Below, piece by piece: positions 12,239-56,386 of a stretch of DNA of 64,000 bases; the first letter of the stretch is position 1, and every line of letters starts with the position of its first letter. The notes beneath the pieces are model-generated. The model did not search any database. It saw only the letters and a program-made list of their open reading frames with translations, and had not been told where the DNA came from. The DNA is from Candidatus Moraniibacteriota bacterium (GTDB lineage: Bacteria; Patescibacteriota; Minisyncoccia; Moranbacterales; GWC2-37-73), in NCBI GenBank assembly GCA_003507445.1, contig DNVR01000019.1, forward strand, positions 142,132-206,131, written 5' to 3'. A program made the position numbers and the translations under genes.

Positions 12239-15200
12239 TTAAGCTAGTTCAGCATTGCCACCGTTAACTATTGTTTTGATTTCGTCCAAAAGCGTTGGGC
12301 TGTGCTCGATGGAAAAAGGTGTTTCAAGTTTATTTTCTTGATGATGTAGAAATACTTTGCATTGTCCAGCGGTGCAAGTGTTGAAAAATTTTGATAAATT
12401 GTGAATTATCTCTGGTGTTGCATTTCGTGGCAGAGTAACTATTAATTTTCTCATTGCTTGTTTGGTTGAATTGTTGTCAATGGTTTGTTGATGATTGCCG
12501 CTGTCTCCACTTGGAGTGGGTGGTTCATTTTTATTATCATCATCTTCATCTTTCACGCCGTAAGTTTTTTTTGTTGCTTCAACGCGCAAATAATTTTCAA
12601 TTTCACCTCGATTGAGTTCCTTGGCTTCATCGACAATTAATTTGTAAACGCCATCCTTATCAGAAAGTCTACCTTCTGCAATAATCATCCTTTCTTCTTC
12701 CCAAACACTTCCAATGCGTTCAAGAACTTTTGGAAAAACCAAAACTTCAATTTTTCCTTTGGTATCTTCAAGCATCACAAAAAGCATGGTCTCTTGTCGT
12801 TTGGTTAAAATCTTTTGAATTTTTTGGATTACTCCACCGACAGCAATTTTTTGTCCAACCAGTTCAGGAGTTAATTTGTCGAGTGAAACTGCGACTTTGT
12901 CGATGTATGCTTGATATTCCTTAACGGGATGTCCACTGACGTAAAGCCCAAGCAATTCCTTTTCCCATTTCAATTGTTGTCTTTTTGAAGCAGGCTCAAC
13001 TTCTAGAAGAGGAACTTGCGGAGTTTCCAAAATAGCCTCTCCAAACAAACTTACTTGGTTTGAATTTTTTGATTTCTGCACACTTTTTGTGAACATCAGA
13101 ATTTGTTCCATACTTTCCACGATTTGATTTCGTTCTCCGAGTTCATCAAGTGCTCCAACTTTTGCCAGAGCGTCGATGGATTTTTTGTTGAGATCTTTTG
13201 TTTCGACGCGTTCCAAGAAATCGCCAAGTGATTTGAATTTTCCATTTCTTTTTCTTTCTTTCACAATCTCACTGGCAATCACGTGACCAACATTTTTAAT
13301 GGCATTAAATCCAAAGCGAATGCTTTCAGTTCCGTCTGCTGCTGTGATCACGGCAAAATCTTCAAAACTTTCGTTTACATTTGGCGCAAGAACTTTAATG
13401 CCCATATCGTGACATTCAGCTGCTTCGATTGCAATGCGATCAATGTTATCCTGATCTGATGTTTGCAGGGCTGCCATAAAAGCAGCAGGGTAATGAGCTT
13501 TGAGATATGCTGTTTGATATCCGATGATGGCATAACAAGCTGCGTGAGAGCGATTGAAACCATAACCAGCAAATGGTTCGATGAAGGAAAAAACTTTTTC
13601 AGCAATTTCTTTTGTGCTTCCATTGGCAATGCAGCCTTCCACGAATTTTATTTTTTGTTCCTTAATCAATTCAAAGATTTTCTTTCCCATTGCTTTTCGA
13701 AGCACATCAGCTTCGCCCATAGTAAATCCTGCCAAATCGCGAGCAATTTGCATAACTTGTTCTTGATATACGGCCACACCATAGGTATTTTTCAAAATTG
13801 GCTCAAGCTTCGGATGAACATATTTTATTTTTCGTCCGTGTTTGCCGGAAATAAAATCAGGAATCCAATCCATCGGTCCTGGACGATACAATGCCACCAT
13901 TGCAATGATATCTTCAATGACTGTTGGTTTTAGCATCTTGAGGTAACGTTTCATTCCGGAACTTTCCAATTGAAAAACTCCAGTCGTTCGCGCTTCTTGC
14001 AAAAGTTCATATGTCTTAGCATCATCAATAGGAATGGTATCAATATCGATGTCGATGCCTTTGGTTTTTTTGACAATGCGGAGTGTGTTTTGGATGATGG
14101 TAAGATTTTTTAATCCCAAAAAGTCCATCTTGAGTAATCCAATTTTTTCCACATAAGAAGATTTGGTTGAAGATGAATATTGAGTCACGGTGCCTTCACG
14201 CGACCCCGTGATGTTTTGAATAGGGGAATAATACGTTACAGGTTCTTTTGTGATTACAACTCCGCAAGCATGCATTCCGGCGTGCCTGATCACACCTTCC
14301 AATCGCATCGCACTATCAATTAATTTTCGAGCATCAGCGCTTCCATTGTAATGGTCTTTAAATTCAGGCACTTCCTCTAGCGCTTTTTTGATGGAAGTGA
14401 ACATCGGAATCATCTGGGAAGTTTTGTTGCAAAAATCATAGGGGATACCCAGCGCTCTGCCAGTGTCTCGAATAGCAGCGCGAGCCGCCATAGTTCCAAA
14501 AGTGATAATTTGCGAAACGTGATCGTTGCCATATTTTTGGCGCACATAGTTTAAAACATCTTCTCGTCTGTCGTCGGCAAAATCCATATCGACATCGGGC
14601 ATTGAAACGCGTTCTGGATTAAGAAATCGTTCGAAAAGCAAATTATATTCAATTGGATCAACATTTGTAATTCCGGTCAGATAGGAAACGAAACTTCCTG
14701 CGGCGCTTCCGCGTCCTGGTCCAACCACAATTCCATTGGCACGTGCCCAGTTAACAAAATCTTGCACAATCAAAAAGTATGATCCATATCCGCATTTTTC
14801 AATAACAGAAAGTTCATAATCCATACGCGTGCGATGAATGTCTGTGATATTTTCGCCATATTTTTTCTTGAGACCTGTTTCGCAAAGTTCAATCAAATAT
14901 GACATATCAGTGTGACCTTCGGGCACATCGAAATGGGGAAGTTGTGTTTCTCCCATTTTTATTTTGAAATCACACTGATCAACCACGAGCTGGGTGTTGG
15001 AAAGCACTTCAGGATTGTCAGGAAAACCAGCTAAGACTTCCTCAGGACTGCGCAGGGATAAATCAAAATCCATCAAATTCATACGATCAGACTCGTATAC
15101 CTTGCGGTTGGTTTGTACACAAAGCAAGATGTCCTGCGCGCTGGCATCTTCTTTGTTGACGTAATGCACGTCATTAGTAGCGACAACTGGGATACCTAGT

Positions 15201-15796
15201 TCCTTGCCTAGTTTAAAAATTCCTTCATTAGCAATTGCTTGATTGGCAAATTTTGCATGACTTTGGACTTCTAGAAAAAAACCATTTTCATCAAAGATAT
15301 CCCTGTATTCCAATGCCAACTCCTTAGCTTTGTCATAATTTCCCATAATTATTTGGGCTGGAATTTCTCCTTCTAAACACGCACTCAGGCCAATTAACCC
15401 TTTGGCATGTTTTCTTAAAAGCTTGCGATCAATACGTGGCTTGTAATAAAAACCATCCAAGTGTGCAACAGAAACAAGTTTCATAAGATTGTGATAACCA
15501 ACCTCGTCTTTTACGAGCAAAATCAAATGGTATCTTTTGCGGTTTTCAGCTGTGGCGTCCTTGGAAGTGTAATCGCCGGCAGTCACATACATTTCGCAGC
15601 CAATGATAGCTTTGATTCCTTTTTCTTTGGCCTTGATAAAAAGTTCCACCGCACCATACATCACGCCATGATCAGTCAGAGCGATTGATTCCATTCCTAA
15701 TTCCTTGGCGCGATCAAGCAGATCATCGACTTTGCCGAGACCATCAAGAAGACTGTAGTGGGAATGGACGTGGAGATGAGTATACTTTAGAGACAT
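12239..15796 (-). CDS. dnaE: DNA polymerase III alpha subunit
   Basis: N-terminal PHP domain (LHVHSHYSLLDGLGK), polymerase core and OB fold. Length 1185 aa. Confidence 0.92.
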   Translation of the reverse strand: MSLKYTHLHVHSHYSLLDGLGKVDDLLDRAKELGMESIALTDHGVMYGAVELFIKAKEKGIKAIIGCEMYVTAGDYTSKDATAENRKRYHLILLVKDEVGYHNLMKLVSVAHLDGFYYKPRIDRKLLRKHAKGLIGLSACLEGEIPAQIIMGNYDKAKELALEYRDIFDENGFFLEVQSHAKFANQAIANEGIFKLGKELGIPVVATNDVHYVNKEDASAQDILLCVQTNRKVYESDRMNLMDFDLSLRSPEEVLAGFPDNPEVLSNTQLVVDQCDFKIKMGETQLPHFDVPEGHTDMSYLIELCETGLKKKYGENITDIHRTRMDYELSVIEKCGYGSYFLIVQDFVNWARANGIVVGPGRGSAAGSFVSYLTGITNVDPIEYNLLFERFLNPERVSMPDVDMDFADDRREDVLNYVRQKYGNDHVSQIITFGTMAARAAIRDTGRALGIPYDFCNKTSQMIPMFTSIKKALEEVPEFKDHYNGSADARKLIDSAMRLEGVIRHAGMHACGVVITKEPVTYYSPIQNITGSREGTVTQYSSSTKSSYVEKIGLLKMDFLGLKNLTIIQNTLRIVKKTKGIDIDIDTIPIDDAKTYELLQEARTTGVFQLESSGMKRYLKMLKPTVIEDIIAMVALYRPGPMDWIPDFISGKHGRKIKYVHPKLEPILKNTYGVAVYQEQVMQIARDLAGFTMGEADVLRKAMGKKIFELIKEQKIKFVEGCIANGSTKEIAEKVFSFIEPFAGYGFNRSHAACYAIIGYQTAYLKAHYPAAFMAALQTSDQDNIDRIAIEAAECHDMGIKVLAPNVNESFEDFAVITAADGTESIRFGFNAIKNVGHVIASEIVKERKRNGKFKSLGDFLERVETKDLNKKSIDALAKVGALDELGERNQIVESMEQILMFTKSVQKSKNSNQVSLFGEAILETPQVPLLEVEPASKRQQLKWEKELLGLYVSGHPVKEYQAYIDKVAVSLDKLTPELVGQKIAVGGVIQKIQKILTKRQETMLFVMLEDTKGKIEVLVFPKVLERIGSVWEEERMIIAEGRLSDKDGVYKLIVDEAKELNRGEIENYLRVEATKKTYGVKDEDDDNKNEPPTPSGDSGNHQQTIDNNSTKQAMRKLIVTLPRNATPEIIHNLSKFFNTCTAGQCKVFLHHQENKLETPFSIEHSPTLLDEIKTIVNGGNAELA

Positions 15797-16334
15797 AAAT
15801 GAATTTGTGATTTAAAAACAGATCTAAATTTCTAATATCTAATTTCCAATATCTAATTAAATTCTAATTTCAAAGTTTTAAACATTAGACATTTGAAATT
15901 TATTGGGAATTAGAAATTAGGAATTAGAAATTAAAAAACCTCACTATAAATAGTGGGCTATAAAATACAGATATTAAAATGTTGAAATTTAATCTTGTTC
16001 ATATGTTTATGTTATCTTCATCTCCCAGGGACAAAGCCATTGGGTTTTGCAAGATATTTTAATAAATCTATGTTAGCATATTTTTTGAAAAAAGAAAACA
16101 TAGTAGTTTAGGACTTACGCTTTTTCTCAACAATTTCTTATTTGGCACGCTTTTGGATGAATACTCAATATCCAAAAGCTCAAAGAGTCGCTGTCGCCGA
16201 CTATTGTCCAAAAAAGAAATGTTTCGAAATGCGTAACTTTTGAAACAGTTCAAAACCTGAAAGTGGATAACTTTTCTTGTAAATATGGTATAATTTAACT
16301 ATTAAGATGGATATTTAAATAGTGGGGTTGTTTA

Positions 16335-16628
16335 ATGTTGGGCATAGATTATAAAAATATGATATTGGGAAAAATTTTTGCCGCAAGTGCTTTAATTGCA
16401 ATAGTTTTAACTTTTTTTGTTGGATACTGGCAAGCTAATTTTCAATTAAATCGGCAAAAGAAGGAAATGGTTGAAATGTCAAAACAGGGAACATTGGGCG
16501 AAATCGAAGCTAGTGGTGGATTTCCTTTAAAGTTTTTTGGTTACGGACTTGCTCAGAAATTTAATGTATTAAATTTTGTGGTAGATATTGTTTTAATGAC
16601 AGTGGTTATTTTTGTGATTCTAAAATAA
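16335..16628 (+). CDS. Hypothetical small membrane protein
   Basis: Two hydrophobic segments; 97 aa. Confidence 0.35.
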   Translation: MLGIDYKNMILGKIFAASALIAIVLTFFVGYWQANFQLNRQKKEMVEMSKQGTLGEIEASGGFPLKFFGYGLAQKFNVLNFVVDIVLMTVVIFVILK

Positions 16629-36906: not shown

Positions 36907-39222
36907 ATGGATTTTTTTAAATTTCCTAAAATTTTACGTGAAAAATCTGAACTAGACACGTCTGGTCAAAAGGCTTTTTTGAAATCCGCTGAACCAATGC
37001 GACCACTTTTTGTGAAAAATTTAGACGAAGCTATTGAAGATCAAATCACAGAAAAAGATGTGCCAGTAGATTTAAAAGCCGAAGCTTCTCTTTTGGGTGC
37101 AAAAGATCTTGGAGCTGCAGCTGCATCAGCAATGACCAAAAGACAGGAAAGGATTCGTAAAGATATGGTCGAAAAATATTTTGAAGAAATATTTCACACA
37201 CAAAAAAAAGAATTTCAAGATTTAAAAGATGAAGATAAAAAGGTTATAAATGATGAGAAATCGGATTTTTTGGAAGAAATTAAAAGTTCTTTTAATGCTG
37301 TTACTAATGAGGATGTTGAAAATGGGCTAAGGGATCGATTCTTAAATCAATTGCATGAAATGAAAATTTCAAAGGAGGCAAGGGATTATGTTAGAAAGGT
37401 GTGCGGTGGAATTGAGGTTGATGAGTTCTTGGGAAGAAAAGAGAATAAAGGCCTGGAGGAAATATTTAAAGAAGCTAAAGGTCTCATATTGAAAACAAAT
37501 GAAACAAAAAAGCAATTTCGTGCAAATAACCCAGGTATTAAGCTTGTGCGTGATTTTACTTTTGATTTAGTGGAAAAAATAGATTACTTTATACAGAAAA
37601 TAGATGAAGATATTGATTTTTTTACTGTCGAGGAGGAGGCTTTGTGTAAAAAAGTATTAGGAGCCTCCAAAGGAATCATTAAGGGTAATGGCAAGAAAAC
37701 ATCGATCGTAATGGACGGATTCACGTACAATGCAGATAGCGCCAATGTGGTAATAAATGAGGTAAAGCCAGCAGCAGTTGAAACTGACGCTGAAAAAGAA
37801 GAAAGAATGAAATTTTCCAGAGCTGGTGCTCAAATAACATTGCAACGAGTTGATAAGTGGGAGGATCTTGACGTTGTTGATCCTGCTGAAAAAGGTGAAC
37901 ATAAGGGCGATAAAAATTTTATAGAAAAAACCAAAAAACTTTGGAAAGAATTTGCGGTCCATGGACTTTATAAAGATGGTAAATTGCAGAAGTTTACTGA
38001 TTTAGATGGTAAAGGTTGCTTGGAATTGTTAAAGTTAGCCAAGATAAATATAAAAGATTTAAAATATATTGATCCTGGTACTTTTGAAGAAGGAAGAATT
38101 AATTTAGATACTGGCGGAAAAGATGGTGTGGTGGCTGAGGATTTTGATAAAGAGAATAAAAAAACAGCTTTTATTGATCATCATGGTGAAGAATCATTGG
38201 CTGATTCTTCTGCAACCGCTAAAACGTATCGAATGTTGGTTGACTTGGGGTTATTAGAAAAGAATCCAAAGCTGGATGAAATGGTAAAATTTGTAAATCA
38301 AGTAGATAATGCACAGTATCCTAAGATAGAAACATATTTTGAAAATTCTCATAAGACAATTATTGGCTTGCAAAATTATATTCATGGATCAAAGTTGGTA
38401 AATTTTTTCATGAAAGATAATAATCCTGACCCAACCAGAGAATTGTCTGAAGGTGAATTAAAGAAATATGGCTTTATATATCCTGGTGTTGGTGATAAAA
38501 AGGGAACTATTGTAAACAGGAGTGAAAATCAGAGAAATGTTAAAGAAAAATCAAAAGAAAGTCTTGAAAGAATGGAAAAAGAAGGATTTATAATTACTTC
38601 TGATCGTTATGGAAAAATTGCAGTAAGTATTGAAAATGGAATTGAAAAGAAAAATATCCCAGGTGATATCTTGGCTGTTAAGGCGTTTGGTTGTGACTCT
38701 CTTGTTATTTGGAACCCAAGAGAAAATAAATTTAAAATTTCTACCAATAACGAAATAACCGAAGAATATTCTCAAGGTGTTAAAGTGCGTGGCATAATGT
38801 GGGTAAAAAATAATAGCGATAGTTCAGAACTAACTGTTACGCTTGGGGAGATTTTGAATAAAATGACAGATGGAAAATTGGTGGCTGAAGGAAAATTGAA
38901 AGAATATTTGGAGCAAGAAGTGGCTTTGCCAGTCTCAAATGCGGATGCATTATCAGTTGAAGCGCCAAAAGAAAAAACTCCAGAAGATTTGTTCAAAGAT
39001 CTGATTGTGGAACTCTCTGTTTTTAATGTAGAAAGATATCAATTGTTGTATAATGAAATGATGGATGTGGCTGGGAAAAAGGGAGTAGTTGGAGATGAAA
39101 AAAAGAAGCTAGTTTTGAGTGTGTTGCCCAATGTTGTTGAACGTGATATTGCAAGGCACACAAAAAAAAGAGGCGAGGAGTTAGAAAAGATTTCTGAGTA
39201 TATTTTGAGTCAAATAAAATAA
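36907..39222 (+). CDS. Hypothetical large protein with embedded DHH-phosphoesterase-like motifs
   Basis: FTDLDGKGCLELL (motif I DxDGxxS/C), INLDTGG (motif II) and AFIDHHGEE (motif III DHH) at canonical spacing. Rest unassigned. Confidence 0.5.
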   Translation: MDFFKFPKILREKSELDTSGQKAFLKSAEPMRPLFVKNLDEAIEDQITEKDVPVDLKAEASLLGAKDLGAAAASAMTKRQERIRKDMVEKYFEEIFHTQKKEFQDLKDEDKKVINDEKSDFLEEIKSSFNAVTNEDVENGLRDRFLNQLHEMKISKEARDYVRKVCGGIEVDEFLGRKENKGLEEIFKEAKGLILKTNETKKQFRANNPGIKLVRDFTFDLVEKIDYFIQKIDEDIDFFTVEEEALCKKVLGASKGIIKGNGKKTSIVMDGFTYNADSANVVINEVKPAAVETDAEKEERMKFSRAGAQITLQRVDKWEDLDVVDPAEKGEHKGDKNFIEKTKKLWKEFAVHGLYKDGKLQKFTDLDGKGCLELLKLAKINIKDLKYIDPGTFEEGRINLDTGGKDGVVAEDFDKENKKTAFIDHHGEESLADSSATAKTYRMLVDLGLLEKNPKLDEMVKFVNQVDNAQYPKIETYFENSHKTIIGLQNYIHGSKLVNFFMKDNNPDPTRELSEGELKKYGFIYPGVGDKKGTIVNRSENQRNVKEKSKESLERMEKEGFIITSDRYGKIAVSIENGIEKKNIPGDILAVKAFGCDSLVIWNPRENKFKISTNNEITEEYSQGVKVRGIMWVKNNSDSSELTVTLGEILNKMTDGKLVAEGKLKEYLEQEVALPVSNADALSVEAPKEKTPEDLFKDLIVELSVFNVERYQLLYNEMMDVAGKKGVVGDEKKKLVLSVLPNVVERDIARHTKKRGEELEKISEYILSQIK

Positions 39223-39236
39223 AGTTACAAAACAAA

Positions 39237-41429
39237 ATGGCAGCAGGAACATTGGACGCAACTATATTTAATGATTTGCTTAACAAGCACACAGCACAAA
39301 TAAGTGCTGAGGTTGAAGTTGAAAAAGAAGACAAGAGAATTGCTAAATGGACACAGGAACACAAGGATAAATTGGCAATTGAAACTGAAGTGCTTGGCGA
39401 GCAGCGTGAAAAAGAGAATGAGATGTTCGAAACTGCTGCCAAGAGTCCTAAAAAAGGAATTGAAAAAAAAGATTCTGTTTTTGAGGGTGAGAGAAATTTC
39501 AAAAAATCCACAGATATGGCTGAAGCTGTTGATCCTCAAGAAAAAGCTCTCAGGGAAGCAAGAAAAATTTATGTCGAAACTGAATTCAAAGAACGAAATG
39601 CTCTTAGGGAAGTTAGGGGTTATTTTAGTCGGGCGCTTGGAAAGGAGGATAAGACAGAAACACCAAATATCGCTGCAGCTCGTATGGCTTATGAAAAATT
39701 ACGTAAAGAAAAGATGAATGGCGAGATTGCCAAACTCGAAAGTGGTACGCTCAAAGGAGATGCTTTGAATACTGAGATCAAGAAATTACTCACTTATTAT
39801 AATACTGGAGCTGCACTGGAATTATATAATGATAGAATTGCAGTAAAAACTGCGCAAAAAAAAGAAACCGAGGGAAAAACAAAGCTTAAAAATACTTGGG
39901 ACAAGGTAACGTTAAAGATGGATCAGGTTGCGGAATTTTATAATAAAAAAGTTCATTGGTCTATAAAAATTGGACTTGCTGCAACCTCTTGGTATCTTGG
40001 TGCTGGTGCATTTAAATCTGGAAAAAACATTTGGGGTGCTTTTATGATGGCAACAGCGGGAGGTGCGGCGTTGGATGGTGCGGCACAATTTACTGATAGT
40101 ATTCTTGATGGTAGGGCGGACAAAAAAAATCTTAAAGAAATTTCCAAAGAAGGTGGCGAGGTTGATTTTGAAAAATTGAGAGGAATCTTGAATCAAAAAA
40201 ATGAAGATATTAATAGAAAAGTTAATAAACATGTGATGCGGGCATATTTTAATAAGACGGTTGCAGTTTGTTTGGCAACAGTAATTGGAGTGCAGGCAGT
40301 TGAGGGCATGGCGCATGCTTTTGAAAAAATGACTGCAGCACCTCCCGTGGTTAGCACCGCTCCATCTGTAGATAATTGGCCAACTCCTCCAAGCACTGGT
40401 ATTCCTGTGGATTTAAAACCAGAATCACCTGAATATATAAAATGGGTGGCTGAACATGGTGGGAAGCCTCCAGTTTCAGCTCAAGATGCTGCTGCGCAAG
40501 CAAAAAAAGCTGCTGAAACTGTTGTTGGTGCTTCAAATAAAGCGGTTGAATCCTTAACAATAGAAAAAGGTTCAAGTATTGAAAAAACATTGATCGATCA
40601 TCTCAAGACTCATGGAATAAAAAATCCAGGAGCTGCAGCACATCGCATGTGGCTTGATTATATGCATGACAATAAAGCTGAGATAATTAAAAAAGTTGGA
40701 GACAATGAATATCACAAGATGCTAAAAGATGGAATGGTTAATGTTAAACCTGGAACGCATATTTTTATAAATGAAAATAATCCGTTGGAGATGAAATTGA
40801 GTAATATTGACGGGAAAATCTCACACCTGAATGGGCATCATTCTGTTGGCAGTGGCGGCGTTGAAAATGGGCAAGGTGTGGGCGCTAGTATTAAACCAAC
40901 TGATATTCCAAAGCCGTCAGCAGCTGCGGTGGTAGGAAATGCTGATGTCTTAGGGTACACTGGGGAAACTCAGCAAAATATTTCAACAGCAAAAGAAATG
41001 TTTAAAAGCGCTAATGCTGAATATATTCAAGCAGCCAATGATGCAACAGATCATCCCGCTGGAGGAGGTGGACCATCGGCATCTCAATATGAAGATATGG
41101 GTCGCGCTGATGAGGCGCGCAAATCGGCAGCTTTGACAGTTGAAAATTTAGCCAATGCAAAAGAGAATTGCTTTAAGGATATAAAAGCAGCGACGAATGG
41201 TATATATAAAGCTACTGGATACAAGTGGGATGATATTAAAAACTTGGATTATAGTTCTGCTTATGCTGATGATAAATTGCGTCCAATTATGAAAGAAATG
41301 GCAAAAGAATATAAAAAAGAATTTGGCAATACTAATAATTTTCCTAATAGTAATACCACTTTTGGGAAATGGCTTTACCGTGTAAAAGAGGTTACTATAA
41401 AAAAACGTTTAGGTATAAATATTGAATAA
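39237..41429 (+). CDS. Hypothetical large protein with central hydrophobic segments
   Basis: 730 aa. Charged N-terminal third, 2-3 predicted TM/hydrophobic helices (IGLAATSWYLGAGAF, GAFMMATAGGAALDGAA, VAVCLATVIGVQAV), Gly/Ala-rich C-terminal region. Confidence 0.45.
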   Translation: MAAGTLDATIFNDLLNKHTAQISAEVEVEKEDKRIAKWTQEHKDKLAIETEVLGEQREKENEMFETAAKSPKKGIEKKDSVFEGERNFKKSTDMAEAVDPQEKALREARKIYVETEFKERNALREVRGYFSRALGKEDKTETPNIAAARMAYEKLRKEKMNGEIAKLESGTLKGDALNTEIKKLLTYYNTGAALELYNDRIAVKTAQKKETEGKTKLKNTWDKVTLKMDQVAEFYNKKVHWSIKIGLAATSWYLGAGAFKSGKNIWGAFMMATAGGAALDGAAQFTDSILDGRADKKNLKEISKEGGEVDFEKLRGILNQKNEDINRKVNKHVMRAYFNKTVAVCLATVIGVQAVEGMAHAFEKMTAAPPVVSTAPSVDNWPTPPSTGIPVDLKPESPEYIKWVAEHGGKPPVSAQDAAAQAKKAAETVVGASNKAVESLTIEKGSSIEKTLIDHLKTHGIKNPGAAAHRMWLDYMHDNKAEIIKKVGDNEYHKMLKDGMVNVKPGTHIFINENNPLEMKLSNIDGKISHLNGHHSVGSGGVENGQGVGASIKPTDIPKPSAAAVVGNADVLGYTGETQQNISTAKEMFKSANAEYIQAANDATDHPAGGGGPSASQYEDMGRADEARKSAALTVENLANAKENCFKDIKAATNGIYKATGYKWDDIKNLDYSSAYADDKLRPIMKEMAKEYKKEFGNTNNFPNSNTTFGKWLYRVKEVTIKKRLGINIE

Positions 41430-41452
41430 AAATTAAACTAAATTAAAATTTT

Positions 41453-41767
41453 ATGGAAGAACATAATACTGCGCAAGCAGAAGCGCTGAGTCAATTGATT
41501 AAAGATTTGGGAATCGACACGCTTTCTCAAGACAAACAAAATGAACTCATCATTAAGATGACGGAAGTTTTGCTGAAGAGAATTTTTCTTGAGACAATGG
41601 ATAAGCTTGGAGAAGAGGGTCGCGAGGAATATGAAAAAATGTCCCAAGGCGAAGTCTCTCCATCGCAAGTAGAAGAATTTTTCAAAGAAAGAATTAATGA
41701 TTATGACGAAATGGTGCAGGGGATTATTGAGGAATTTAGGGGAGAGATGATGCAGGCAAACAAATAA
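41453..41767 (+). CDS. Hypothetical small acidic protein
   Basis: 104 aa, helical and acidic; tightly linked to upstream gene. Confidence 0.4.
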   Translation: MEEHNTAQAEALSQLIKDLGIDTLSQDKQNELIIKMTEVLLKRIFLETMDKLGEEGREEYEKMSQGEVSPSQVEEFFKERINDYDEMVQGIIEEFRGEMMQANK

Positions 41768-41866
41768 ACATGTAACATACAACATGTAACATGTAACAAA
41801 AAAATGCGTTGGTATCCTAGGTTGGATGTTATATGCTATATGTTATATGCTATATGGTGAGAATTT

Positions 41867-42304
41867 ATGAAAAGTAACTTAGAGCCGATTGAGGAAAGTG
41901 ATTTGGACTTGGAGGGTAAAATTAAAAATGGAAGTGTGGATTTTTCTCGTGAGGATGCCGTGCCTGTTTCTGCTATTGAACGTGAAGCGATAAAAGAAGT
42001 TAGTGCAGCTGAAAAGGATGCTGCTTATGGCAAAATTCTTTCCAAAGTTCAAACAGTGCAATCTGATGATGAATTGGATCAAACAGTCATTGCGTCTGAT
42101 GCGAAGACTGGTTACGAAAAAATGGATGCTGAGTCGCAGGTTCAGCACTTGGTTGATATTGCAGGGCAAAAAGGTGTTGTGCATGCTGTGAAAGTGGCTC
42201 AACATATGCAAGACAATTATATTCTCGACACTTTTCACGACCGTATGCTCGGCGAAGAACTGCACAATGCATTGGTGGAGAAGGGAATGATAAAGGAAAT
42301 CTAG
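41867..42304 (+). CDS. Hypothetical acidic protein
   Basis: 145-aa ORF, no domain recognised. Confidence 0.4.
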   Translation: MKSNLEPIEESDLDLEGKIKNGSVDFSREDAVPVSAIEREAIKEVSAAEKDAAYGKILSKVQTVQSDDELDQTVIASDAKTGYEKMDAESQVQHLVDIAGQKGVVHAVKVAQHMQDNYILDTFHDRMLGEELHNALVEKGMIKEI

Positions 42305-42475
42305 GATTTCAAGGTCTAAATACTAAAGACTAAAGACTAAATCAAGATTAAATTTAAAAAAGTTTAAAGTATTGCGTTTGTTTATATTTTAAACTTTAGA
42401 TTTGATTTAGTAATTAGACTTCAGACTTTAGAATTAAAAAATATAAACAAAAAATACAAATAAAAAATATTTTTC

Positions 42476-44962
42476 ATGAATACTCTCGACCTCAACACCA
42501 TCCTCATCCCTTTGCTTTGGGTTTTTGCCACACTGACTCTTTTTAGTGGTGCTTTTTTGGTTGTGCGAAGTTTTTTGAATTATCGTGCTCAAATCAATCG
42601 TTCGATGAATATGGACTTGGAAGTTGTGCGAGTGACAAAAATTTTCAAGGAAAAAGGCGAGCGAAGTGAAAATGGCGAAGCTTGGAAAGAAGAAATTGGT
42701 GCGATGGAACAATTGCTCACGACACTTTCTAATATTAAAGAAAAAAAATCACTCTGGGCTCATTTTTTGTATAGCGAGCCATATATGGCACTTGAAATTG
42801 CCAATCCTTGTGGAAATGAGGAAATTTCTTTTTATTTGGCAGTGCCAAAGAAATTTCGTGACAGCATTGAGAAGCAAGTTCATTCATATTTCCCACATGC
42901 TTCTATTGAAAAAATTCCAGATTATACGATTTTTTCACCAGGGAGTTTTACTGCTGCTGCAACACTTGGACTTAAACGTTCATATGCTTTGCCAGTTCTT
43001 ACATATGAAAATATTGATGTTGACCCGCTCAATGAAATTTCAAATGCGCTTAGTAAGCTGCAAACAGAAGGGGAAGGTGCGGCGATTCAGATTGTTTTGC
43101 GTCCTGCGGGAAAAAATTGGCGAAAATTGGGAAGAGGAATTGCACACAAGATGCAACAAGGAAAACAACTTAAGGATGCACATTCAAATTCGATCGCAAT
43201 GGAACTTGGAAAAGGTATGGTGCAAGTGATTCAAAATAAGCCAAAGGAAGAAATTCTGCACAAGGATTCAGTGCAGCTTACTCCGGAAGAACAGGAACTT
43301 GTAAAAAAAATTGAAGCAAAATCTGGCAAGGCTGGATTCAAAGCTAACATTCGTTTGCTTGCATCTGCAATGACTCAACAGAAGGCGGATGAAATTTTGG
43401 CGCATATGGAAAATGCTTTTGCGCAATTTGAAAATCACGACGTCAACCATTTTGTGGTGCAAAAAAGAATTAAATCCAAGAAAATATCTTTTGATTATAT
43501 CTTCAGAAATTTTGATGAAGATCATTCTATCATTTTGTCTACTGAGGAAATTGCCAGTATTTTTCATTTTCCAATTTCTACCACTGAAACACCAAAAATT
43601 AAATGGTTGAAAGCTGGAGCTGCACCACCACCACTTAATATTCCAAAAGAAGGATTGGTTCTTGGATATAATGATTATCGTGGAGTAAAAACCGACATCA
43701 GACTTAGTGATGGAGACAGACGAAGGCATTTGTATACTATCGGTCAAACTGGTGTTGGTAAGTCAAATTTCTTGCAGGAAATGGCCAAACAAGATGCGCG
43801 TGACGGCAAAGGATTTTGCTTTATTGATCCACACGGAGATGCGATTGAAGATATTTTAACTGCCATTCCGAAGGAACGCGCGGAAGATGTGATTGTGTTT
43901 GATCCATCTGATATGGAAAGACCCTTTGGACTTAATATGCTGGAATATGACCCGAGTCATCCCGAGCAAAAAACTTTTGTGATTAATGAAATGATTGGTA
44001 TTTTTGATCAGTTGTATGATTTGAAAGCTACAGGTGGTCCGATGTTTGAACAATATGTGCGAAATGCGATGCTCCTTATTATGGAAGATCCTGAATCAGG
44101 CTCAACGCTGATGGAAATTTCCAAAGTTTTGGCTGATGAAGATTTCCGCAAAATGAAATTGTCCAAGTGTAATAATCCCGTAGTTTCAGATTTTTGGATC
44201 AAGGAAGCTGAGAAAGCTGGTGGGGAAGCAGCACTTGCTAATATGGTTCCGTATATCACTTCCAAGCTTACCACCTTTGTTTCTAATGATATGATGCGTC
44301 CAATCATCGCACAGCAAAAAAGTACAATCAATTTTCGTGAAGTGATGGATTCTGGCAAAATTTTGTTGGTAAAACTTTCCAAAGGAAAGATTGGAGAAAT
44401 CAATGCACATCTTTTGGGAATGGTTATTGTGGGAAAAATTTTAATGAACGCGCTGGCGCGCGGTGATATGCCTGAAGATCAGCGTCGCGATTTTTATCTT
44501 TATTTGGATGAATTTCAAAATGTCACAACTGAATCGATTTCTCAAATTCTTTCTGAAGCGCGAAAATATCGTTTGTGTTTGATTATTGCACATCAATTTA
44601 TTGGGCAACTTAAAGAAGAAATTTCCAAGGCAGTTTTTGGTAACGTTGGTTCGATGGTGGCTCTGCGAGTTGGACCAGAAGATGCAGAGTTTTTGGAAAA
44701 ACAATTCGAACCGATTTTTACTGCCAATGATTTGGTTAATGTGGATAATTATAGTGGCTTTACGCGAATGCTTGTTAATGGGGAACTTTCCAAGCCATTT
44801 AATATTAAATTTTATCCACCAACCAGGGGCAATCAAGAAGCTGCCAATTATCTCAAAGAGCTGTCACGCCTCAAATATGGACGCGACGCTGCTATTGTGA
44901 ACCGTGAAATTATGCAACGCGCCCAATTTGCACGTAGCGCAATGAAAGAGTCAGCTTTCTAA
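42476..44962 (+). CDS. Membrane-anchored TrwB/TraD/VirD4-like (type IV coupling protein family) P-loop ATPase
   Basis: N-terminal TM (LIPLLWVFATLTLFSGAFLVV). Walker A YTIGQTGVGKSNF followed by FIDPHGD (compare TrwB VIVDPNGD). Distant Walker B LYLDEFQNV. Confidence 0.65.
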   Translation: MNTLDLNTILIPLLWVFATLTLFSGAFLVVRSFLNYRAQINRSMNMDLEVVRVTKIFKEKGERSENGEAWKEEIGAMEQLLTTLSNIKEKKSLWAHFLYSEPYMALEIANPCGNEEISFYLAVPKKFRDSIEKQVHSYFPHASIEKIPDYTIFSPGSFTAAATLGLKRSYALPVLTYENIDVDPLNEISNALSKLQTEGEGAAIQIVLRPAGKNWRKLGRGIAHKMQQGKQLKDAHSNSIAMELGKGMVQVIQNKPKEEILHKDSVQLTPEEQELVKKIEAKSGKAGFKANIRLLASAMTQQKADEILAHMENAFAQFENHDVNHFVVQKRIKSKKISFDYIFRNFDEDHSIILSTEEIASIFHFPISTTETPKIKWLKAGAAPPPLNIPKEGLVLGYNDYRGVKTDIRLSDGDRRRHLYTIGQTGVGKSNFLQEMAKQDARDGKGFCFIDPHGDAIEDILTAIPKERAEDVIVFDPSDMERPFGLNMLEYDPSHPEQKTFVINEMIGIFDQLYDLKATGGPMFEQYVRNAMLLIMEDPESGSTLMEISKVLADEDFRKMKLSKCNNPVVSDFWIKEAEKAGGEAALANMVPYITSKLTTFVSNDMMRPIIAQQKSTINFREVMDSGKILLVKLSKGKIGEINAHLLGMVIVGKILMNALARGDMPEDQRRDFYLYLDEFQNVTTESISQILSEARKYRLCLIIAHQFIGQLKEEISKAVFGNVGSMVALRVGPEDAEFLEKQFEPIFTANDLVNVDNYSGFTRMLVNGELSKPFNIKFYPPTRGNQEAANYLKELSRLKYGRDAAIVNREIMQRAQFARSAMKESAF

Positions 44963-45014
44963 AAGGTTTTAGGTGTTAGGTACTAGGTTCTAGGTTTTAG
45001 AAAAATTCATACAG

Positions 45015-45044
45015 CAAAAAACGGCTATCGTTAGCCGTTTTTTG
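45015..45044 (+). terminator. Rho-independent terminator aaaaaacggctatcgttagccgtttttt
   Basis: Stem cggcta/tagccg with A/T flanks after the ATPase gene. Confidence 0.6.
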
Positions 45045-45053
45045 TGTTGTTAT

Positions 45054-45125
45054 TGACTTTTTATCAATTTGGGTGTATAATATAAAGATAGTGTCCACAC
45101 GTTTTAAAAACGTGTGGATTTTTTA
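45054..45125 (+). promoter_or_regulatory. Consensus-like promoter TTGACT-N16-TATAAT immediately followed by hairpin+T-run (tccacacgtttt-aaaaa-cgtgtgga-tttttt)
   Basis: Seen directly. Would give a transcript of about 40 nt; alternatively an antisense/attenuated unit facing the 3' end of the 874-aa gene. Confidence 0.4.
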
Positions 45126-47747
45126 TTGAAGCGTAACTGAAATCAGTCCAGCTAAAGTTGCAATGTATGCGAGTTTGTTTTGTTCGTCGACTGTCAATGA
45201 AAGCGCATCTTTGAAGGCTTCATTGTGGTATTGCACAAGGATGTTCCCGTCTTTGCTATATGAAACTAGGCGCGAGTTTTGTGTGTCTAGTACATAGAGG
45301 TTTTGCAAGTCCGGAGTTGTGTATATTTTATCAAAGTTAATAGGTGTGGTGGATGCTTCAAGTGTGAAATCGACAACTTTTCCTTTGAAGAATTTTAAAA
45401 CTTTATTATCGGAAATCGCATAAATGTTGTCGTCGATTGTTATTTCTGAAACATTTGCAAGAGATGTTGAATCTTTGAGCCAACTTGTTTTTTCGCCAAA
45501 TCCACCGTCTGCGCGTGGGAAGCGATAAATTTGATTGTTTTTTTGATCAAGCACATATAAATATGTTAGATATGTTCCAATTGGACTTCCTGATGAAATG
45601 TTGGATAAATCGATGTTGTTGCTTGCAAACTTTTCTGAAATTGGACTGAAGGAAAGAATTTTGTTGCTGTCCGTGAAGATTAAAACAAGGGACAAGTCTT
45701 TCATATATGTTGCGGAAATAGCAGCTCCGGAGTCAGCAGGAATCGGAAATTCTTTCGGCTCTTTGTTTTGCAAAACAATAACGCTGTTTTTTGTAACCAC
45801 TGTTGGATTGTTGTTTGCGATCAAAGCGGTAACGATATTTGAGTTTGATAAAATTGCTTGAATTTGTGTGTTGAAATCAATATTTTTGTCATTTGCCAAT
45901 GCTCCTATTTGGGTCAAAGGCGCATCTTGAAGTTCAACAATTGTTGGAGCTTTTGGTCTGTTCAAGAAACGCACAATGAAAAGAGGTGCGATAAAAATAA
46001 GGGCTAGTGCAAAAAGAATAAACAGTTTTTGTTTTCCTGAAAAATGTGAAAATAATTTTCCAATTTTTGAAAAATGCGGAGTTATGATGGTTGTTAATTG
46101 ACTTGGCTTTGCAATACCAGACCTTCTTTTTGCTATTGCTCTAATTTTGCTTAGTCCAATTTTTGTGTGCGCAATTAATTTTTTTGATAGTGGTAGTATT
46201 TTTTTAATATTTTCCAAAGCCAACATCTTAAGTTTCGTTGTTTTGGATGTTGTTTCAACATTTTCAAATTGTATTTCTGGCTGGATGAGGATTTCTTCTT
46301 CTAATGTCTCGGTTTCCTTTGCGGTTTTGTTTTTCAGATCAATAACAGCGTTTCCTTGCTGCTCTAGTCTTGCTAAACGAAGTTTTTCTTTGAAGCTTAA
46401 TTGTGAATCTGCAGTTGGTTGGCTCTCTGGTTCTTCTGCGCCGATATCTGCAACTTTAATTTTTGCTGCTGTTTTTTTCTTGGCTATTTCAGCTTTTGCG
46501 AGAATATTTTCTTGTGCAAGATTTTCTTGTTGACGCTTGTTTTCTTCCTCAAGATGAAGTTTGGCAAGTTGCTGCTCCTCGGCGATTTGTTGTTCGCGCT
46601 GAATTTCTTGCAAAACCCTTTCTTCTTCAAGACGTTTTGCCTCTTCGGCTGCAAGAAGCTGTTGTTTTTCTTTTTCAATTCTGCGAAGCTCTCTTCTTTT
46701 TGCTAATTGTTTTTTGTATAAAGAAAAACGTTTTCGAATTTCATTTTTGGTTAAATATGATCCTTGGGAGATTTTTTCTTTGATCATATCCCAATACAAA
46801 TTCATTTGGGGATTGGTGTTCTCATTGTTTTCATTGACCTCGCCCTGAACGTATATGTGCCCGGTTTTTTCATCGGTATATTCTTGTTCAGCATCTGCCG
46901 GCAGTATTGTCATTTCTAATTCATTTTCTTGTGCCAAGGTTTCAGTGTCTTTGGCGCTGGCAAAAGATTGTTGGCTGAAAGCATTGACTGCCTTGGGAGA
47001 TTTTTTGCGAGGCAGTGCCTTGGTTGCTGCAGCAGGAACCACTTCAGTCATTTCGACAACCACCGAAGCAATCATTTCTATTTGGTTTGAAAGTGCGGTT
47101 TTCAAAAATTGCACAAATTTGTCTCCTTCAAATCGTTGGAAATTCTTTTTGATTTCAGCAATTGGCAAAATATGAAAAATATCTGCCGAGGTTATCAGCA
47201 TTCGATCATTTTTTTCAAGGCGTCCGCTGGAAACATTAACAAAAGTCTTGAGTGGGTGTGGCTCAAGGGAATCTGAGGCGAGATCCTCACTTATCTCGGA
47301 AAGACTTTGGTTTCTATATAAAAAGATTTTAGCATCGCCTGAAACACTGAAATGCGCATTGTTTTTTTCTAACACACAAATTGCGGCGTTTATTTTGCCT
47401 AGCCATTCAACGTTCCCGTGTTTGGCTAATTCAGAAAGTGCAATGTTCACTTTGTGTAGGGCACTGTCCAAGCTTTCCGTGACTGGTCTTTTTGGATTTA
47501 TATAATATTCCTTTTTTAAAACAGAGGTTAAAAAGTTCACAACATATGCAGATTCATCGGAGAATTCTTTGACTTCAAAAAAGCCAACAAGCGAGCCGAG
47601 CGGTTGCTGGTAGATGTTTTCTGGTGCGTATTCAAATAATTCCACGTATGGTTTTAGGGAGGAATTGTTGACAACCAAAATTGGGGAAATTGTTTTTTCC
47701 AGTTCTTTTATCACATCTTTGTTTTTATCGGAGTTTCTTGGGGACAT
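45123..47747 (-). CDS. Hypothetical single-pass membrane protein (cytoplasmic domain + Glu/Gln coiled coil + TM + extracytoplasmic beta-repeat domain)
   Basis: TM LFILFALALIFIAPLFIV near aa 560; EEERVLQEIQREQQIAEEQQ coiled coil; C-terminal repeats resembling beta-propeller blades. Confidence 0.5.
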   Translation of the reverse strand: MSPRNSDKNKDVIKELEKTISPILVVNNSSLKPYVELFEYAPENIYQQPLGSLVGFFEVKEFSDESAYVVNFLTSVLKKEYYINPKRPVTESLDSALHKVNIALSELAKHGNVEWLGKINAAICVLEKNNAHFSVSGDAKIFLYRNQSLSEISEDLASDSLEPHPLKTFVNVSSGRLEKNDRMLITSADIFHILPIAEIKKNFQRFEGDKFVQFLKTALSNQIEMIASVVVEMTEVVPAAATKALPRKKSPKAVNAFSQQSFASAKDTETLAQENELEMTILPADAEQEYTDEKTGHIYVQGEVNENNENTNPQMNLYWDMIKEKISQGSYLTKNEIRKRFSLYKKQLAKRRELRRIEKEKQQLLAAEEAKRLEEERVLQEIQREQQIAEEQQLAKLHLEEENKRQQENLAQENILAKAEIAKKKTAAKIKVADIGAEEPESQPTADSQLSFKEKLRLARLEQQGNAVIDLKNKTAKETETLEEEILIQPEIQFENVETTSKTTKLKMLALENIKKILPLSKKLIAHTKIGLSKIRAIAKRRSGIAKPSQLTTIITPHFSKIGKLFSHFSGKQKLFILFALALIFIAPLFIVRFLNRPKAPTIVELQDAPLTQIGALANDKNIDFNTQIQAILSNSNIVTALIANNNPTVVTKNSVIVLQNKEPKEFPIPADSGAAISATYMKDLSLVLIFTDSNKILSFSPISEKFASNNIDLSNISSGSPIGTYLTYLYVLDQKNNQIYRFPRADGGFGEKTSWLKDSTSLANVSEITIDDNIYAISDNKVLKFFKGKVVDFTLEASTTPINFDKIYTTPDLQNLYVLDTQNSRLVSYSKDGNILVQYHNEAFKDALSLTVDEQNKLAYIATLAGLISVTLQ

Positions 47748-53637: not shown

Positions 53638-54246
53638 TTAGAGTGAAGAAACTCGAGCTGAATATTTTTGAAGATTTTTCAACTGGTTTTCATTAAGTGT
53701 CTTGGATGCAGCAATTGCTTTTTGGATCAAATCTTTTGAAAATTCTACATTTGTTCCAACGCGAACGCCACCTTTATGTCCAACAGCTTTTCTTAGGTAA
53801 TCTTCGATGTAGATCTTGTGTTCTTTTGTCAAAGTTGAATCCTGGTTTTTTTCGAGATAATTCGCAGTTGCTCTACGAGCAAGAACAGTCAATCCGTCAC
53901 CTCTACCTGCAGTTTCAACGAATGAAACCTCGGTTTCTTTGCTTGTTTGAGCAGGAGAAACAGCTGGTTTGGTGTCTTTGTTTTCTGTTACTTTTGCTTC
54001 TTCTGTTTTGTCAGCAACTTTTTCTTCGTCAGTGGTTGCGTCGCTTTCTTCAGTTGCTTGCTGCTGATCAGCTACGATAGGAGAATCTGTTCTTTTTGAA
54101 TATGAATAAATTCCTCCGGCAATGATAATAACGATTGCAACACTGATGATAATGCGAAGATTATCTTGAAACCATCTTTTTAGTTGTTCAGACTTCTCTT
54201 CTTGGGTTTCTGTTTCTGGTGTGTATTCTTCCATATGTGATTTCAC
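53638..54246 (-). CDS. Hypothetical membrane-anchored protein
   Basis: SD aaggaaggtga upstream. Single TM (IIISVAIVIIIAGGIYSY), acidic Thr/Glu-rich linker, conserved-looking C-terminal domain. Confidence 0.45.
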   Translation of the reverse strand: MKSHMEEYTPETETQEEKSEQLKRWFQDNLRIIISVAIVIIIAGGIYSYSKRTDSPIVADQQQATEESDATTDEEKVADKTEEAKVTENKDTKPAVSPAQTSKETEVSFVETAGRGDGLTVLARRATANYLEKNQDSTLTKEHKIYIEDYLRKAVGHKGGVRVGTNVEFSKDLIQKAIAASKTLNENQLKNLQKYSARVSSL

Positions 54247-54299
54247 CTTCCTTTCTAGTTTAATCCCGCGTCCAGTGAGGATGCGGGAATTGAATGATT

Positions 54300-55080
54300 A
54301 ATTGTCAAAGGGCGCTTTCGTTGAAGCTTTATCCGCCTCTGGCGATTTCAATCGCTTTAGGAGACAAATTCTTCCTTTAGTCTTTTCATTGTATCTTAGC
54401 CAAATTTGAGCGTCAACTAGACAAAAAGCCTGTTTTTTGGCGTAATAAAGCATAAAACATATAGCGTACAACATGCAACAAACAACAAACAACATTGTAA
54501 CCCCAGTTAAATATTGTGGAGTACCACAATTTAACAGGATAAATATATAACAAAAAATAATATAAATTGATGTAAAATTATTGGTTTATAATTTATAACA
54601 AAGTTTAAATAAAATATTTTTTTATAAAAATATGAGAGATTGAAAAATACAAAAAGTTAAAAAATAATTTTTTCAAAAAAAAGTCTGCGTAGAAAATATT
54701 TTTTAGAAATTTTATTTCAAGATAGATGTATAAATATAATGTGAGATAAGATAGTGGATATGGTGTTAAAATGTTTTTTAAAATTTAAAAGTTAAAATTT
54801 AAAATTTTGTGATGCTGTGGATAACTTTTTTGCATTGCTTTTTAAAAAATATCCACTATAATTAAGGTAATGGAAAAAAGATTTTTTGAAAATATTTTTT
54901 CTGTGAAATAAAAACATTAAAAGCAAAAATTAAAAATTAAAAATATTTGTTTTCTGAAAAAGTATTTAGAACTTTAGACTTTGGCCCGCACCTTTTCTGA
55001 TGATTGCAATTGAAATCAAAAGAGATGGTGCGGGACAAACGAGTCTTGCTAGATATTCGTATAAGAGCAAATTTACGAAA
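54300..55080. promoter_or_regulatory. AT-rich ORF-free region with clustered DnaA-box matches (candidate oriC or DnaA-regulated region)
   Basis: TGTGGATAA at 54816-54824 (9/9 to reverse complement of TTATCCACA), TAGTGGATA at 54752-54760, TATCCACTA at 54850-54858, weaker TTATCCGCC at 54328. Long A/T tracts 54540-54720. Confidence 0.4.
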
Positions 55081-55094
55081 GGAGGTGTTTTACC

Positions 55095-55265
55095 ATGGCA
55101 GTTAAAAAAGCAAAAAAGAAAGTTGCAAAAAAAGTAGTTAAAAAAGTTGCAAAGAAAGCTGTAAAAAAAGCAGTTAAAACTGTAAAAAAAGCAGTTAAAA
55201 AAGCAGCTCCAAAAAAAGCTGTAAAGAAAGTTGCAAAAAGAAAAGTAGCAAAGAAACGAAAATAG
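55095..55265 (+). CDS. Lysine/alanine-rich histone-like small basic protein (Hc1/H1-like KKAVKK repeats), 56 aa
   Basis: Strong SD aaaggaggtg 7 nt upstream of ATG; terminator downstream. Not in ORF track (<60 aa). The antisense ORF 55073..55303 is an artefact. Confidence 0.6.
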   Translation: MAVKKAKKKVAKKVVKKVAKKAVKKAVKTVKKAVKKAAPKKAVKKVAKRKVAKKRK

Positions 55266-55327
55266 TTTTCTTTTGATACATGTTTTTTATTTTTTGGCTT
55301 CATTGAAAGCCTAAATATATCAACAAA

Positions 55328-55358
55328 CTAAAACCCGCCAATTTGGCGGGTTTTAGTT
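55328..55358 (+). terminator. Rho-independent terminator aaaacccgccaatttggcgggtttt
   Basis: Stem cccgcc/ggcggg + T-run. Confidence 0.6.
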
Positions 55359-55369
55359 TTGAGGAAAAG

Positions 55370-55488
55370 TTGTCATTCCGGACTTGATCCGGAATTCAGG
55401 ATTAGCACGTTAAACTTTAAATAATATTTTTCTCAATTTTAAATCCGTAGTTCAAATCCTGGATTCCCGCCTACGCGGGAATGATAAT
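55370..55488. mobile_element. MITE-like element (ttgtcattcc-GGACTTGATCC-ggaattcagg ... cctggattcc-CGCCTACGCG-ggaatgataa)
   Basis: Same architecture as 33207-33328; internal hairpin stems differ by compensatory changes. Confidence 0.6.
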
Positions 55489-55495
55489 GAATTTT

Positions 55496-56386
55496 TTATT
55501 TAATTTCTATTTTACACACTCTCCATTTACCAGCTAAGTCTTTTTTGAATTCTGGCTTGGTTTTTGGGAAAATGCTTTTGATAAGTTTTGCGAGTGGTTG
55601 TTTTTGCTCGGGACTGATCTCTAAAAAACATGTGACATGTGACAATTGACAATTGGCAAGAAAATCCTGGAGTTGTTCTAATAATTTGCGGTAATGTTGC
55701 AGTCCGGCTTCTGGACTGTAAAGTGCAGATTTTGGTTCGAATTTTTTGACATCAATTGGAGCTGAAGAATAAATTTCTTTTGAGAGATAGGGAAGATTAG
55801 CCACGATTACTATCGTGGAATTTCCAATTTCCAATTTCCAATTTCCAATAAATGGTTCAAGTAAACTTCCGTGGAGGAATTTGATTTTTTTATCAACGCC
55901 ATTCGCGGCAGCATTTTTCTTGGCAATGGTTAATGCTTCCTTGCTGATGTCGATTCCAAAGTATTCAACTTTGTCATTCCCGCGGAGGCGGGAATCCAGG
56001 TTTGCGATGGAGATAATAATATTTCCAGATCCTGTCCCAATGTCAACAATTCCTAAATTGGAAATTGGAAATTGGAAATTGGAAATTTCGTTGAGCACCA
56101 GCTCAACGAGTAGTTCCGTTTCTGGTCTTGGGACGAGAGTGTGTTTATTTACGATAAAATCCAATCCATAAAATTCCTTATGACCAAGGATGTAGGCGAT
56201 AGGCTCTCCTTTGAGGCGACGATTAATTTGAAATTTGAAATTTGAAATTTGAAATTTTGTTAATTTATATTCTGGATATGTTAAAACAAACTCCCTTGTT
56301 TTACCAAGAGAGTTTGCTATTAGGATTTCTAAATCCAAATAGTCTAGTTTATTTGTATATTTTTGGATAATTTCTGAAATTGTCAT
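55496..56386 (-). CDS. prmC: Release factor glutamine N5-methyltransferase PrmC/HemK
   Basis: VDIGTGSGNIIISIA SAM motif I and VANLPY (NPPY-like) motif IV. Adjacent to prfA. Carries several in-frame inserts derived from heptamer repeats and a MITE half-site (LDSRLRGNDK). Confidence 0.8.
   Translation of the reverse strand: MTISEIIQKYTNKLDYLDLEILIANSLGKTREFVLTYPEYKLTKFQISNFKFQINRRLKGEPIAYILGHKEFYGLDFIVNKHTLVPRPETELLVELVLNEISNFQFPISNLGIVDIGTGSGNIIISIANLDSRLRGNDKVEYFGIDISKEALTIAKKNAAANGVDKKIKFLHGSLLEPFIGNWKLEIGNSTIVIVANLPYLSKEIYSSAPIDVKKFEPKSALYSPEAGLQHYRKLLEQLQDFLANCQLSHVTCFLEISPEQKQPLAKLIKSIFPKTKPEFKKDLAGKWRVCKIEIK

Follow-up and report, generated by a model that had tools for sequence, protein, structure and literature searches.

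A solitary, conserved DnaA box at the predicted promoter of a lysine-rich mini-protein gene in Moranbacteria: a probable DnaA-controlled promoter rather than a chromosome origin

The DnaA box is the most widely conserved protein-binding motif in bacteria and has a near-universal consensus. Chromosome origins (oriC) typically carry at least three boxes at ≤1 mismatch and are usually linked to dnaA, dnaN or rpmH; datA and DARS are DnaA-box clusters with an IHF or Fis site that act on the nucleotide state of DnaA; and Caulobacter DnaA boxes differ from the E. coli consensus. In vitro, DnaA can bind a single box, and it functions as a transcription factor; stable in vivo binding in B. subtilis usually requires clusters of boxes (PMC2533591), whereas the box described below stands alone. 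The closest described systems are promoters of B. subtilis (dnaA, sda, ywlC, yydA and yllB/mraZ-ftsL) and of E. coli (dnaA, nrdAB, mioC, rpoH and polA), at which a canonical TTATCCACA box lies outside oriC, as it does here, and the initiator doubles as a transcription factor, as we propose for our locus (PMC2533591). The yllB(mraZ)-ftsL operon of B. subtilis is DnaA-repressed (PMC2533591), and in Caulobacter crescentus boxes in the promoters of gcrA, hdaA, ftsZ and podJ couple replication initiation to the expression of cell-cycle genes (work cited in PMC2533591). Patescibacteria encode DnaA (PMC12102498), and the skew between origin and terminus is conventional in CPR genomes (PMC4736985, PMC7111523). 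We found no report on DnaA or oriC in Moranbacteria in a literature search, and a search for work linking a DnaA box, a histone-like protein and a regulon found no relevant title or abstract.

The window (the whole 64-kb stretch of DNA that we analysed) is identical in sequence to part of contig DOKX01000004.1 of GCA_003510165.1, a Candidatus Moranbacteria groundwater MAG, where it corresponds to about 154,211-90,212 in reversed orientation; the identical sequence is also found on Rifle aquifer scaffolds, and its closest species-level relatives are other Moranbacteria. An earlier note on this DNA had singled out an ORF-free, AT-rich region as a candidate oriC away from dnaA or, alternatively, as a DnaA-regulated promoter of the histone-like gene downstream. 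The region is real: a gene-free gap spans 54235-55094 (~850 bp; 27% GC overall, 19% in 54451-54812 and 12% in 54540-54720), and no gene is called in it in public records. On its left lies the gene for a 198-aa membrane protein (minus strand) and on its right the gene for a 56-aa Lys/Ala/Val-rich protein (plus strand), to the right of which follow the convergent prmC-prfA and then rpmE, rpsB and tsf; the remaining content of the window is ordinary housekeeping genes and type-IV-secretion-like genes. The earlier note had stated that dnaA and dnaN are missing here; we found neither in the window nor in the 10 kb past either end. We joined the window with these 10 kb on each side, taken from the same 296-kb contig (DOKX01000004.1), into an 84-kb composite; no dnaA was found in these 84 kb or, by tblastn with an E. 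coli DnaA query, in 167 related loci. We also observed that the cluster at 36907-47747, which codes for large proteins without a Pfam match and a TraG/VirD4-like coupling protein (42476-44962), is consistent with the chromosomal type IV secretion system that has been reported in Patescibacteria (PMC12102498). In other classes this system often lies near dnaA (PMC12102498); here the 84 kb contain no dnaA.

Scoring of the gap confirmed the perfect match that had been claimed: a TTATCCACA box lies on the minus strand at 54816-54824 (plus-strand reading TGTGGATAA; 9/9), centred near -49 of a predicted plus-strand promoter. The two neighbouring sites that had been counted as 8/9 matches did not hold up. 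They had been scored out of register, and in register the first (AGTGGATAT, 54753-54761) and the second (ATATCCACT, 54849-54857) each match at 7/9, which is chance level; neither is conserved, and because of their 7/9 scores both are absent from the list of sites with ≤1 mismatch. At this usual criterion the gap contains one box. A weaker site reported near 54328 does exist as a 7/9 match (TTATCCGCC, 54329-54337), but it sits in a variable stem of an RNA leader. Quantification of sites with ≤2 mismatches revealed 1.36 per 400 bp in 39 distinct related loci, when compared to ~1.83 expected from shuffles, and extra boxes around the perfect box at ≤1 mismatch numbered 0.08 per locus (39 related loci). 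The two 7/9 sites turned out to be arms of a perfect 11-bp inverted repeat: the left arm (ATAGTGGATAT, plus strand, 54751-54761) includes the site at 54753-54761 and is not conserved beyond the same species, and the right arm (ATATCCACTAT, minus strand, 54849-54859) includes the site at 54849-54857, sits in the promoter spacer and overlaps the -10. The repeat is restricted to the window species and its nearest relatives, with the right arm present only in the closest clade, L007, L087 and L092.

A metagenome scan anchored on the membrane protein returned 80 loci (all related loci carry L-numbers in this text). Two alignments with relatives (A1 and A3) split the gap into two conserved blocks around unconstrained filler. 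The right-hand block (54813-54866; CTGTGGATAACTTTTTTGCATTGCTTTTTA...TATAAT), which is invariant in both alignments, includes the predicted promoter of the Lys-rich gene (54825-54862, plus strand), made up of an invariant CTTTTTTGCA linker, a -35 TTGCTT (54835-54840), a 16-nt spacer and a -10 TATAAT (54857-54862), with transcription predicted to start near 54869 on the plus strand. The -35 is TTGCAA in most relatives; that of the window matches the consensus at 3/6, which is why the promoter is unlisted by the promoter scan. The same module, consisting of TGTGGATAAC, a T-tract, a -35 of TTGCAA or TTGCTT, a 16-nt spacer and TATAAT, was present in 43 distinct Moranbacteria sequences, and the distance from the start of the box to the start of the -10 was 41 nt in 33 of these, 42 nt in 8 and 39 nt in 2, placing the box at ~-53 to -45 of a predicted sigma-70-type promoter. 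The first gene 3' of the module, preceded by a strong RBS, was always a Lys-rich mini-protein gene (18-61 aa). In relatives, anything from 290 to 710 bp separates the box from the membrane-protein gene, a variability which indicates that the box belongs to the promoter of the Lys-rich gene, and in L008 and L010 the module stays with the Lys-rich gene far from the membrane-protein gene. For an unbiased count we started from Lys-rich genes, ignoring boxes: the 450 nt upstream contained a perfect box in 42 of 50 such genes and in 2 of 500 shuffled controls. Genuine Lys-rich genes that lack the box were found in L116, L119, L140, L145 and L150. Three loci (L118, L143 and L156) have the 9-mer in the opposite orientation to the promoter and still perfect. 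When orientation is judged against the membrane-protein gene, inverted perfect 9-mers were seen at L143:3413, L156:5566, L118:4835 and L128:4112; in L143 and L156 the box is also ~8-14 nt farther from the recognisable -35 region. These inversions show that the 9-mer itself is under selection. Judged by these comparisons, the predicted box-promoter module is a deeply conserved feature of Moranbacteria.

The gene downstream (55095-55265, plus strand) is an ORF for a 56-aa Lys/Ala/Val-rich basic mini-protein (MAVKKAKKKVAKK...) of histone-H1-like composition; it contains a 12-nt periodic repeat, and the homologues in relatives are 18-61 aa long. By its composition, the peptide may bind DNA. The Lys-rich protein gave no Pfam, NCBIfam or HMMER match, and for HMMER the lack of a significant match among 5.8 billion proteins is probably due to compositional bias; the exact protein sequence is absent from the protein collection searched. 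The predicted 5' UTR of the gene (~226 nt; 54869-55094, plus strand) contains a strong hairpin at 54977-55045 and the RBS AAAGGAGG and folds with an energy of -32 kcal/mol (z = -6.7), and relatives show compensatory changes in the stem (CCCGCACC/GGTGCGGG vs CCCACACC/GGTGTGGG vs CACTTTTTT/AAAAAAGTG). Past the gene, a perfect hairpin with 17-bp arms flanked by A and T runs (55325-55359; -25.2 kcal/mol, z = -7.3) is likely a bidirectional terminator for the Lys-rich gene and the convergent prmC-prfA operon. We also noticed short GC-rich hairpins (cattccggacttgatccggaat; attcccgcctacgcgggaat) at 55360-55490, between the terminator and the prmC 3' end; similar CCCGC...GCGGG hairpins recur in leaders of related loci and may be small dispersed palindromic elements.

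The left-hand conserved block (54235-54451) contains the minus-strand promoter, an upstream element and the leader of the membrane-protein gene. This gene (53638-54234, minus strand; MEEYTPE...WFQDNLRIIISV...), whose transcription is directed away from the gap, encodes a hypothetical protein of 198 aa with an N-terminal membrane anchor; NCBI lists the identical protein as 'hypothetical protein [Candidatus Moranbacteria bacterium]', and it gave no Pfam match and nothing informative from NCBIfam. Its predicted sigma-70-type promoter (TTGACG, 17 nt, TACAAT; 54388-54416, minus strand) was found by the promoter scan with 10/12 matches and is invariant in relatives, AGTTGACG being kept in all of them, and a conserved upstream element, TTATTACGCCAAAAAA (54433-54451, minus strand), lies at ~-45 to -65 as seen in A3 columns and the metagenome loci. 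The predicted 5' leader (~145 nt; 54235-54381, minus strand), which would start near 54381 and has conserved blocks in A1 and A3, comprises two variable hairpins, the RBS AGAAAGGAAGGUGA and, at 54314-54327, the motif GCUUCAACGAAAGC. This motif (GCUUCAACGNAAGC) is invariant in 52 distinct sequences and unique in the window, and the hairpins that flank it vary in sequence and persist in position. The leader folds with an energy of -39.1 kcal/mol (z = -2.8); in the fold for the window, a 5' SD-like CUAAAGGAAGAAU pairs with CUUC, and CCUUU pairs with the real SD. An Rfam scan of 54150-55520 at gathering score found no family (the whole window yielded only three tRNAs), and the sub-threshold matches of a permissive scan of the gap region were all terminator-/hairpin-like chance matches. 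Possibly the leader is a cis-regulatory RNA of a kind not yet described. In many clades (L113, L121, L135, L146, L152, L155, L161 and others) both divergent genes have a GGUCGA(AA) motif in their leaders, and this motif is missing from the clade of the window; GGTCGAAA, tried as a general leader motif, occurs in the window at chance frequency and was rejected.

Between the two blocks lies the AT-rich spacer (54452-54812; 19% GC), whose A/T tracts had been proposed as a DNA-unwinding element (DUE). Their composition stands, with 12% GC in 54540-54720, but their sequence is unconserved and no DnaA-trios accompany them. The spacer has almost no invariant columns in alignment A3 and is variable in length, and in L091, L108, L165 and L166 GC-rich hairpins adjoin the box in place of AT-rich sequence. 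We rejected the spacer as a hidden conserved element or small ORF, as it is unconserved and its indels are not multiples of three. A palindrome within it (ATTGTGG-AGTA-CCACAAT; 54510-54528) is present in the same-species L087 and absent from more distant relatives. On the alignments, the middle ~360 bp is apparently unconstrained AT-rich filler.

We propose, at a probability of roughly three in four, that the gap is a divergent intergenic control region containing a DnaA-controlled promoter of the Lys-rich, histone-like gene. This is the alternative reading of the earlier note, and it fared well: a lone box with a 9/9 consensus match adjoins a predicted promoter, is co-conserved with it in orthologous loci, is fixed relative to TATAAT in 43 relatives and travels with the gene. 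Under this proposal, the left 215 bp would serve as promoter and structured 5' leader of the leftward membrane-protein gene, and the right 280 bp as promoter and long 5' UTR of the rightward Lys-rich gene. DnaA would bind the high-affinity box (~-49) as a transcription factor beside RNA polymerase, occupying the place of the distal UP subsite that the alpha C-terminal domain would contact, and synthesis of the Lys-rich peptide would thereby be tied to the level or activity of DnaA and hence to replication status. The promoter and its start site are those predicted from the conserved block. By analogy with most B. subtilis DnaA targets, we lean weakly toward repression or modulation as the direction of regulation.

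Boxes upstream of mraZ bear on the identity of the binder. In the fetched CPR loci, nine mraZ genes had sufficient sequence in front of them; within 200 bp upstream, a box with ≤1 mismatch was present in 9/9 and a perfect box in 6/9, when compared to chance expectations per locus of ~0.04 (≤1 mismatch) and 0.0015 (perfect). The loci concerned are L017:1782-1906, L020:7447, L023, L031:4449, L034:3259, L044, L057, L059 and L067, and L017 has four boxes in 124 bp upstream of mraZ. These boxes mirror the yllB case of B. subtilis and suggest that DnaA may similarly control the division/cell-wall operon in CPR, as with B. subtilis yllB-ftsL; they also lend independent support to the canonical box as a promoter-proximal site in Patescibacteria. 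Taken together, the exact consensus, the ability of DnaA to bind a single box and the mraZ boxes lead us to infer that DnaA binds at ~-49.

The conservation upstream of the Lys-rich gene extends beyond the 9-mer to the following C and the T-tract, which makes a different or additional factor conceivable, and the site is single, not clustered. Another factor (a lineage-specific regulator) or a UP-like element could thus occupy it, its identity to a DnaA box being coincidental. We consider this unlikely, since the exact 9/9 consensus is kept in both orientations, which would be very unlikely for an unrelated site, and since the same 9-mer lies upstream of mraZ in other CPR classes, the context of a known B. 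subtilis DnaA target.

A site that titrates or regulates DnaA (datA-/DARS-like, or belonging to a titration field near the origin) without acting directly on transcription is more doubtful still. Such a site would be in keeping with the frequency of perfect boxes, of which the 64-kb window holds 5 versus 0.68 expected (~7-fold; 0/100 shuffles reach 5), with the single orientation of all 6 boxes over 84 kb, and with the box enrichment for titration described in E. coli (PMC12371093). However, datA and DARS are multi-box clusters and here we found a single box, perfect boxes outside the module are about chance-rare in related loci, and titration leaves the rigid -35/-10 spacing and the linkage to one gene family unexplained. 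The perfect boxes lie at 4235, 21132, 44740, 54816 and 56549, plus 70380 in the right-hand extension (L170), all of them reading TGTGGATAA on the plus (leading) strand; the core GTGGATAA has a strand bias of 10:1, and three of the perfect boxes in coding regions translate as Val-Asp-Lys/Asn. Titration, origin-proximal enrichment, or codon or composition effects could account for this enrichment and strand bias. Two boxes with ≤1 mismatch occur together at other places in the window (34043/34052 and 44740/44812). At 16262-16295 we also noticed an 8/9 box that shares the extended context of the perfect box (AGTGGATAACTTTTC) and overlaps the place of the -35 in an extended -10 promoter (TGGTATAAT). 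A 97-aa membrane ORF (16335-16628) follows downstream of it, and the AT-rich gap of ~540 bp in which it lies is divergent from dnaE (12239-15796, minus strand).

The headline of the earlier note, a replication origin, was the claim that fell. Cumulative GC skew, proposed there as a check, rises through the site over the 84 kb and has no minimum near 54-55 kb, and plus-strand GC skew is positive to the left and right of the gap. Since most genes are on the plus strand, we separated the gene-strand effect from the replication-strand effect through third-codon-position skew. In plus-strand reading, the skew of minus-strand genes was +0.27 (45123-47747) and +0.36 (53638-54234) to the left of the gap and +0.26 to its right, indicating that the plus strand is the leading strand on both sides, and the replication fork traverses the locus left to right. 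Among 23 distinct related loci, skew was positive in the left flank in 23/23 and in the right flank in 20/23. Genes over ~38 kb to the left of the gap are mostly on the plus strand and directed at it, the opposite of an origin layout. A bacterial oriC and this gap have in common a perfect box beside very AT-rich DNA and a long gene-free region; in contrast to an oriC, the gap has no box cluster (one box at ≤1 mismatch), no trio run in a DnaA-trio scan, no change of skew sign over 84 kb, no conserved unwinding element (the DNA is AT-rich, but trio-less and unconserved in sequence), neither divergent gene orientation of the origin type nor dnaA or dnaN as neighbours, and its box is held in a fixed promoter geometry. 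None of the defining oriC features that we tested held up. An oriC at a non-canonical place away from dnaA, at which DnaA would bind three boxes and open the adjacent A/T tracts, is very improbable, for although the perfect box is conserved, is accompanied at 63 and 33 bp by two weak sites in helical phase, has a flank of 12% GC, and belongs to a window enriched in perfect boxes, the skew and GC3 skew keep their sign, the left-hand genes run in common toward the site, additional boxes do not exceed chance, trios are missing, the AT tract is unconserved and replaced by GC hairpins beside the box in some relatives, and a box fixed 41 nt from the -10 that relocates with the Lys-rich gene (L008 and L010) fits a promoter element and not an origin. 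As far as the 84-kb context and the comparative data allow, the gap as chromosome origin is largely refuted. A false origin call is thereby removed, and the case illustrates how misleading AT-rich DNA with a single perfect DnaA box can be.

To our knowledge, very little has been learned about gene regulation in Patescibacteria, so a conserved promoter linked to the initiator offers a useful way in. The cis-element identified here is very strongly conserved in an uncultured CPR lineage, and it yields the testable hypothesis that DnaA acts there as a transcription factor for a basic nucleoid peptide, with the mraZ/division operon as its target in other CPR classes. It is possible, at somewhat less than even odds, that in Moranbacteria and perhaps in wider Patescibacteria a minimal regulon is coupled to replication by DnaA, acting at single perfect boxes at the Lys-rich gene and the mraZ/division cluster. 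If true, the box at ~-49 of a polylysine histone-like gene would be the bacterial equivalent of the coupling of histone synthesis to S phase, and the initiator itself would wire replication initiation, chromatin packing and division in ultra-small cells.

When compared to known H1-like proteins, the Lys-rich product shares its AKKA/VKKA-type basic low complexity with Chlamydia Hc1/Hc2, Pseudomonas AlgP and the tails of mycobacterial HupB and Ku (PAKKA repeats), and repeat number and length vary both in these proteins and in the Lys-rich product (PMC2848022, PMC9239181). It differs from them in being far smaller (18-61 aa), in having no globular domain and in showing no detectable homology. With respect to the regulons, B. 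subtilis and E. coli have clusters of boxes, whereas here a single box is held at a rigid -53 to -45, the Lys-rich mini-protein is not known as a DnaA target, and the Moranbacteria lineage is uncultured; the Caulobacter regulon has other target genes, and the box here is a perfect consensus. In kind, the proposed control would be an extension of the DnaA regulons described in B. subtilis, E. coli and Caulobacter. What is distinctive here is the uncultured lineage, the unusually rigid and solitary site, and the odd polylysine mini-protein that would be its target.
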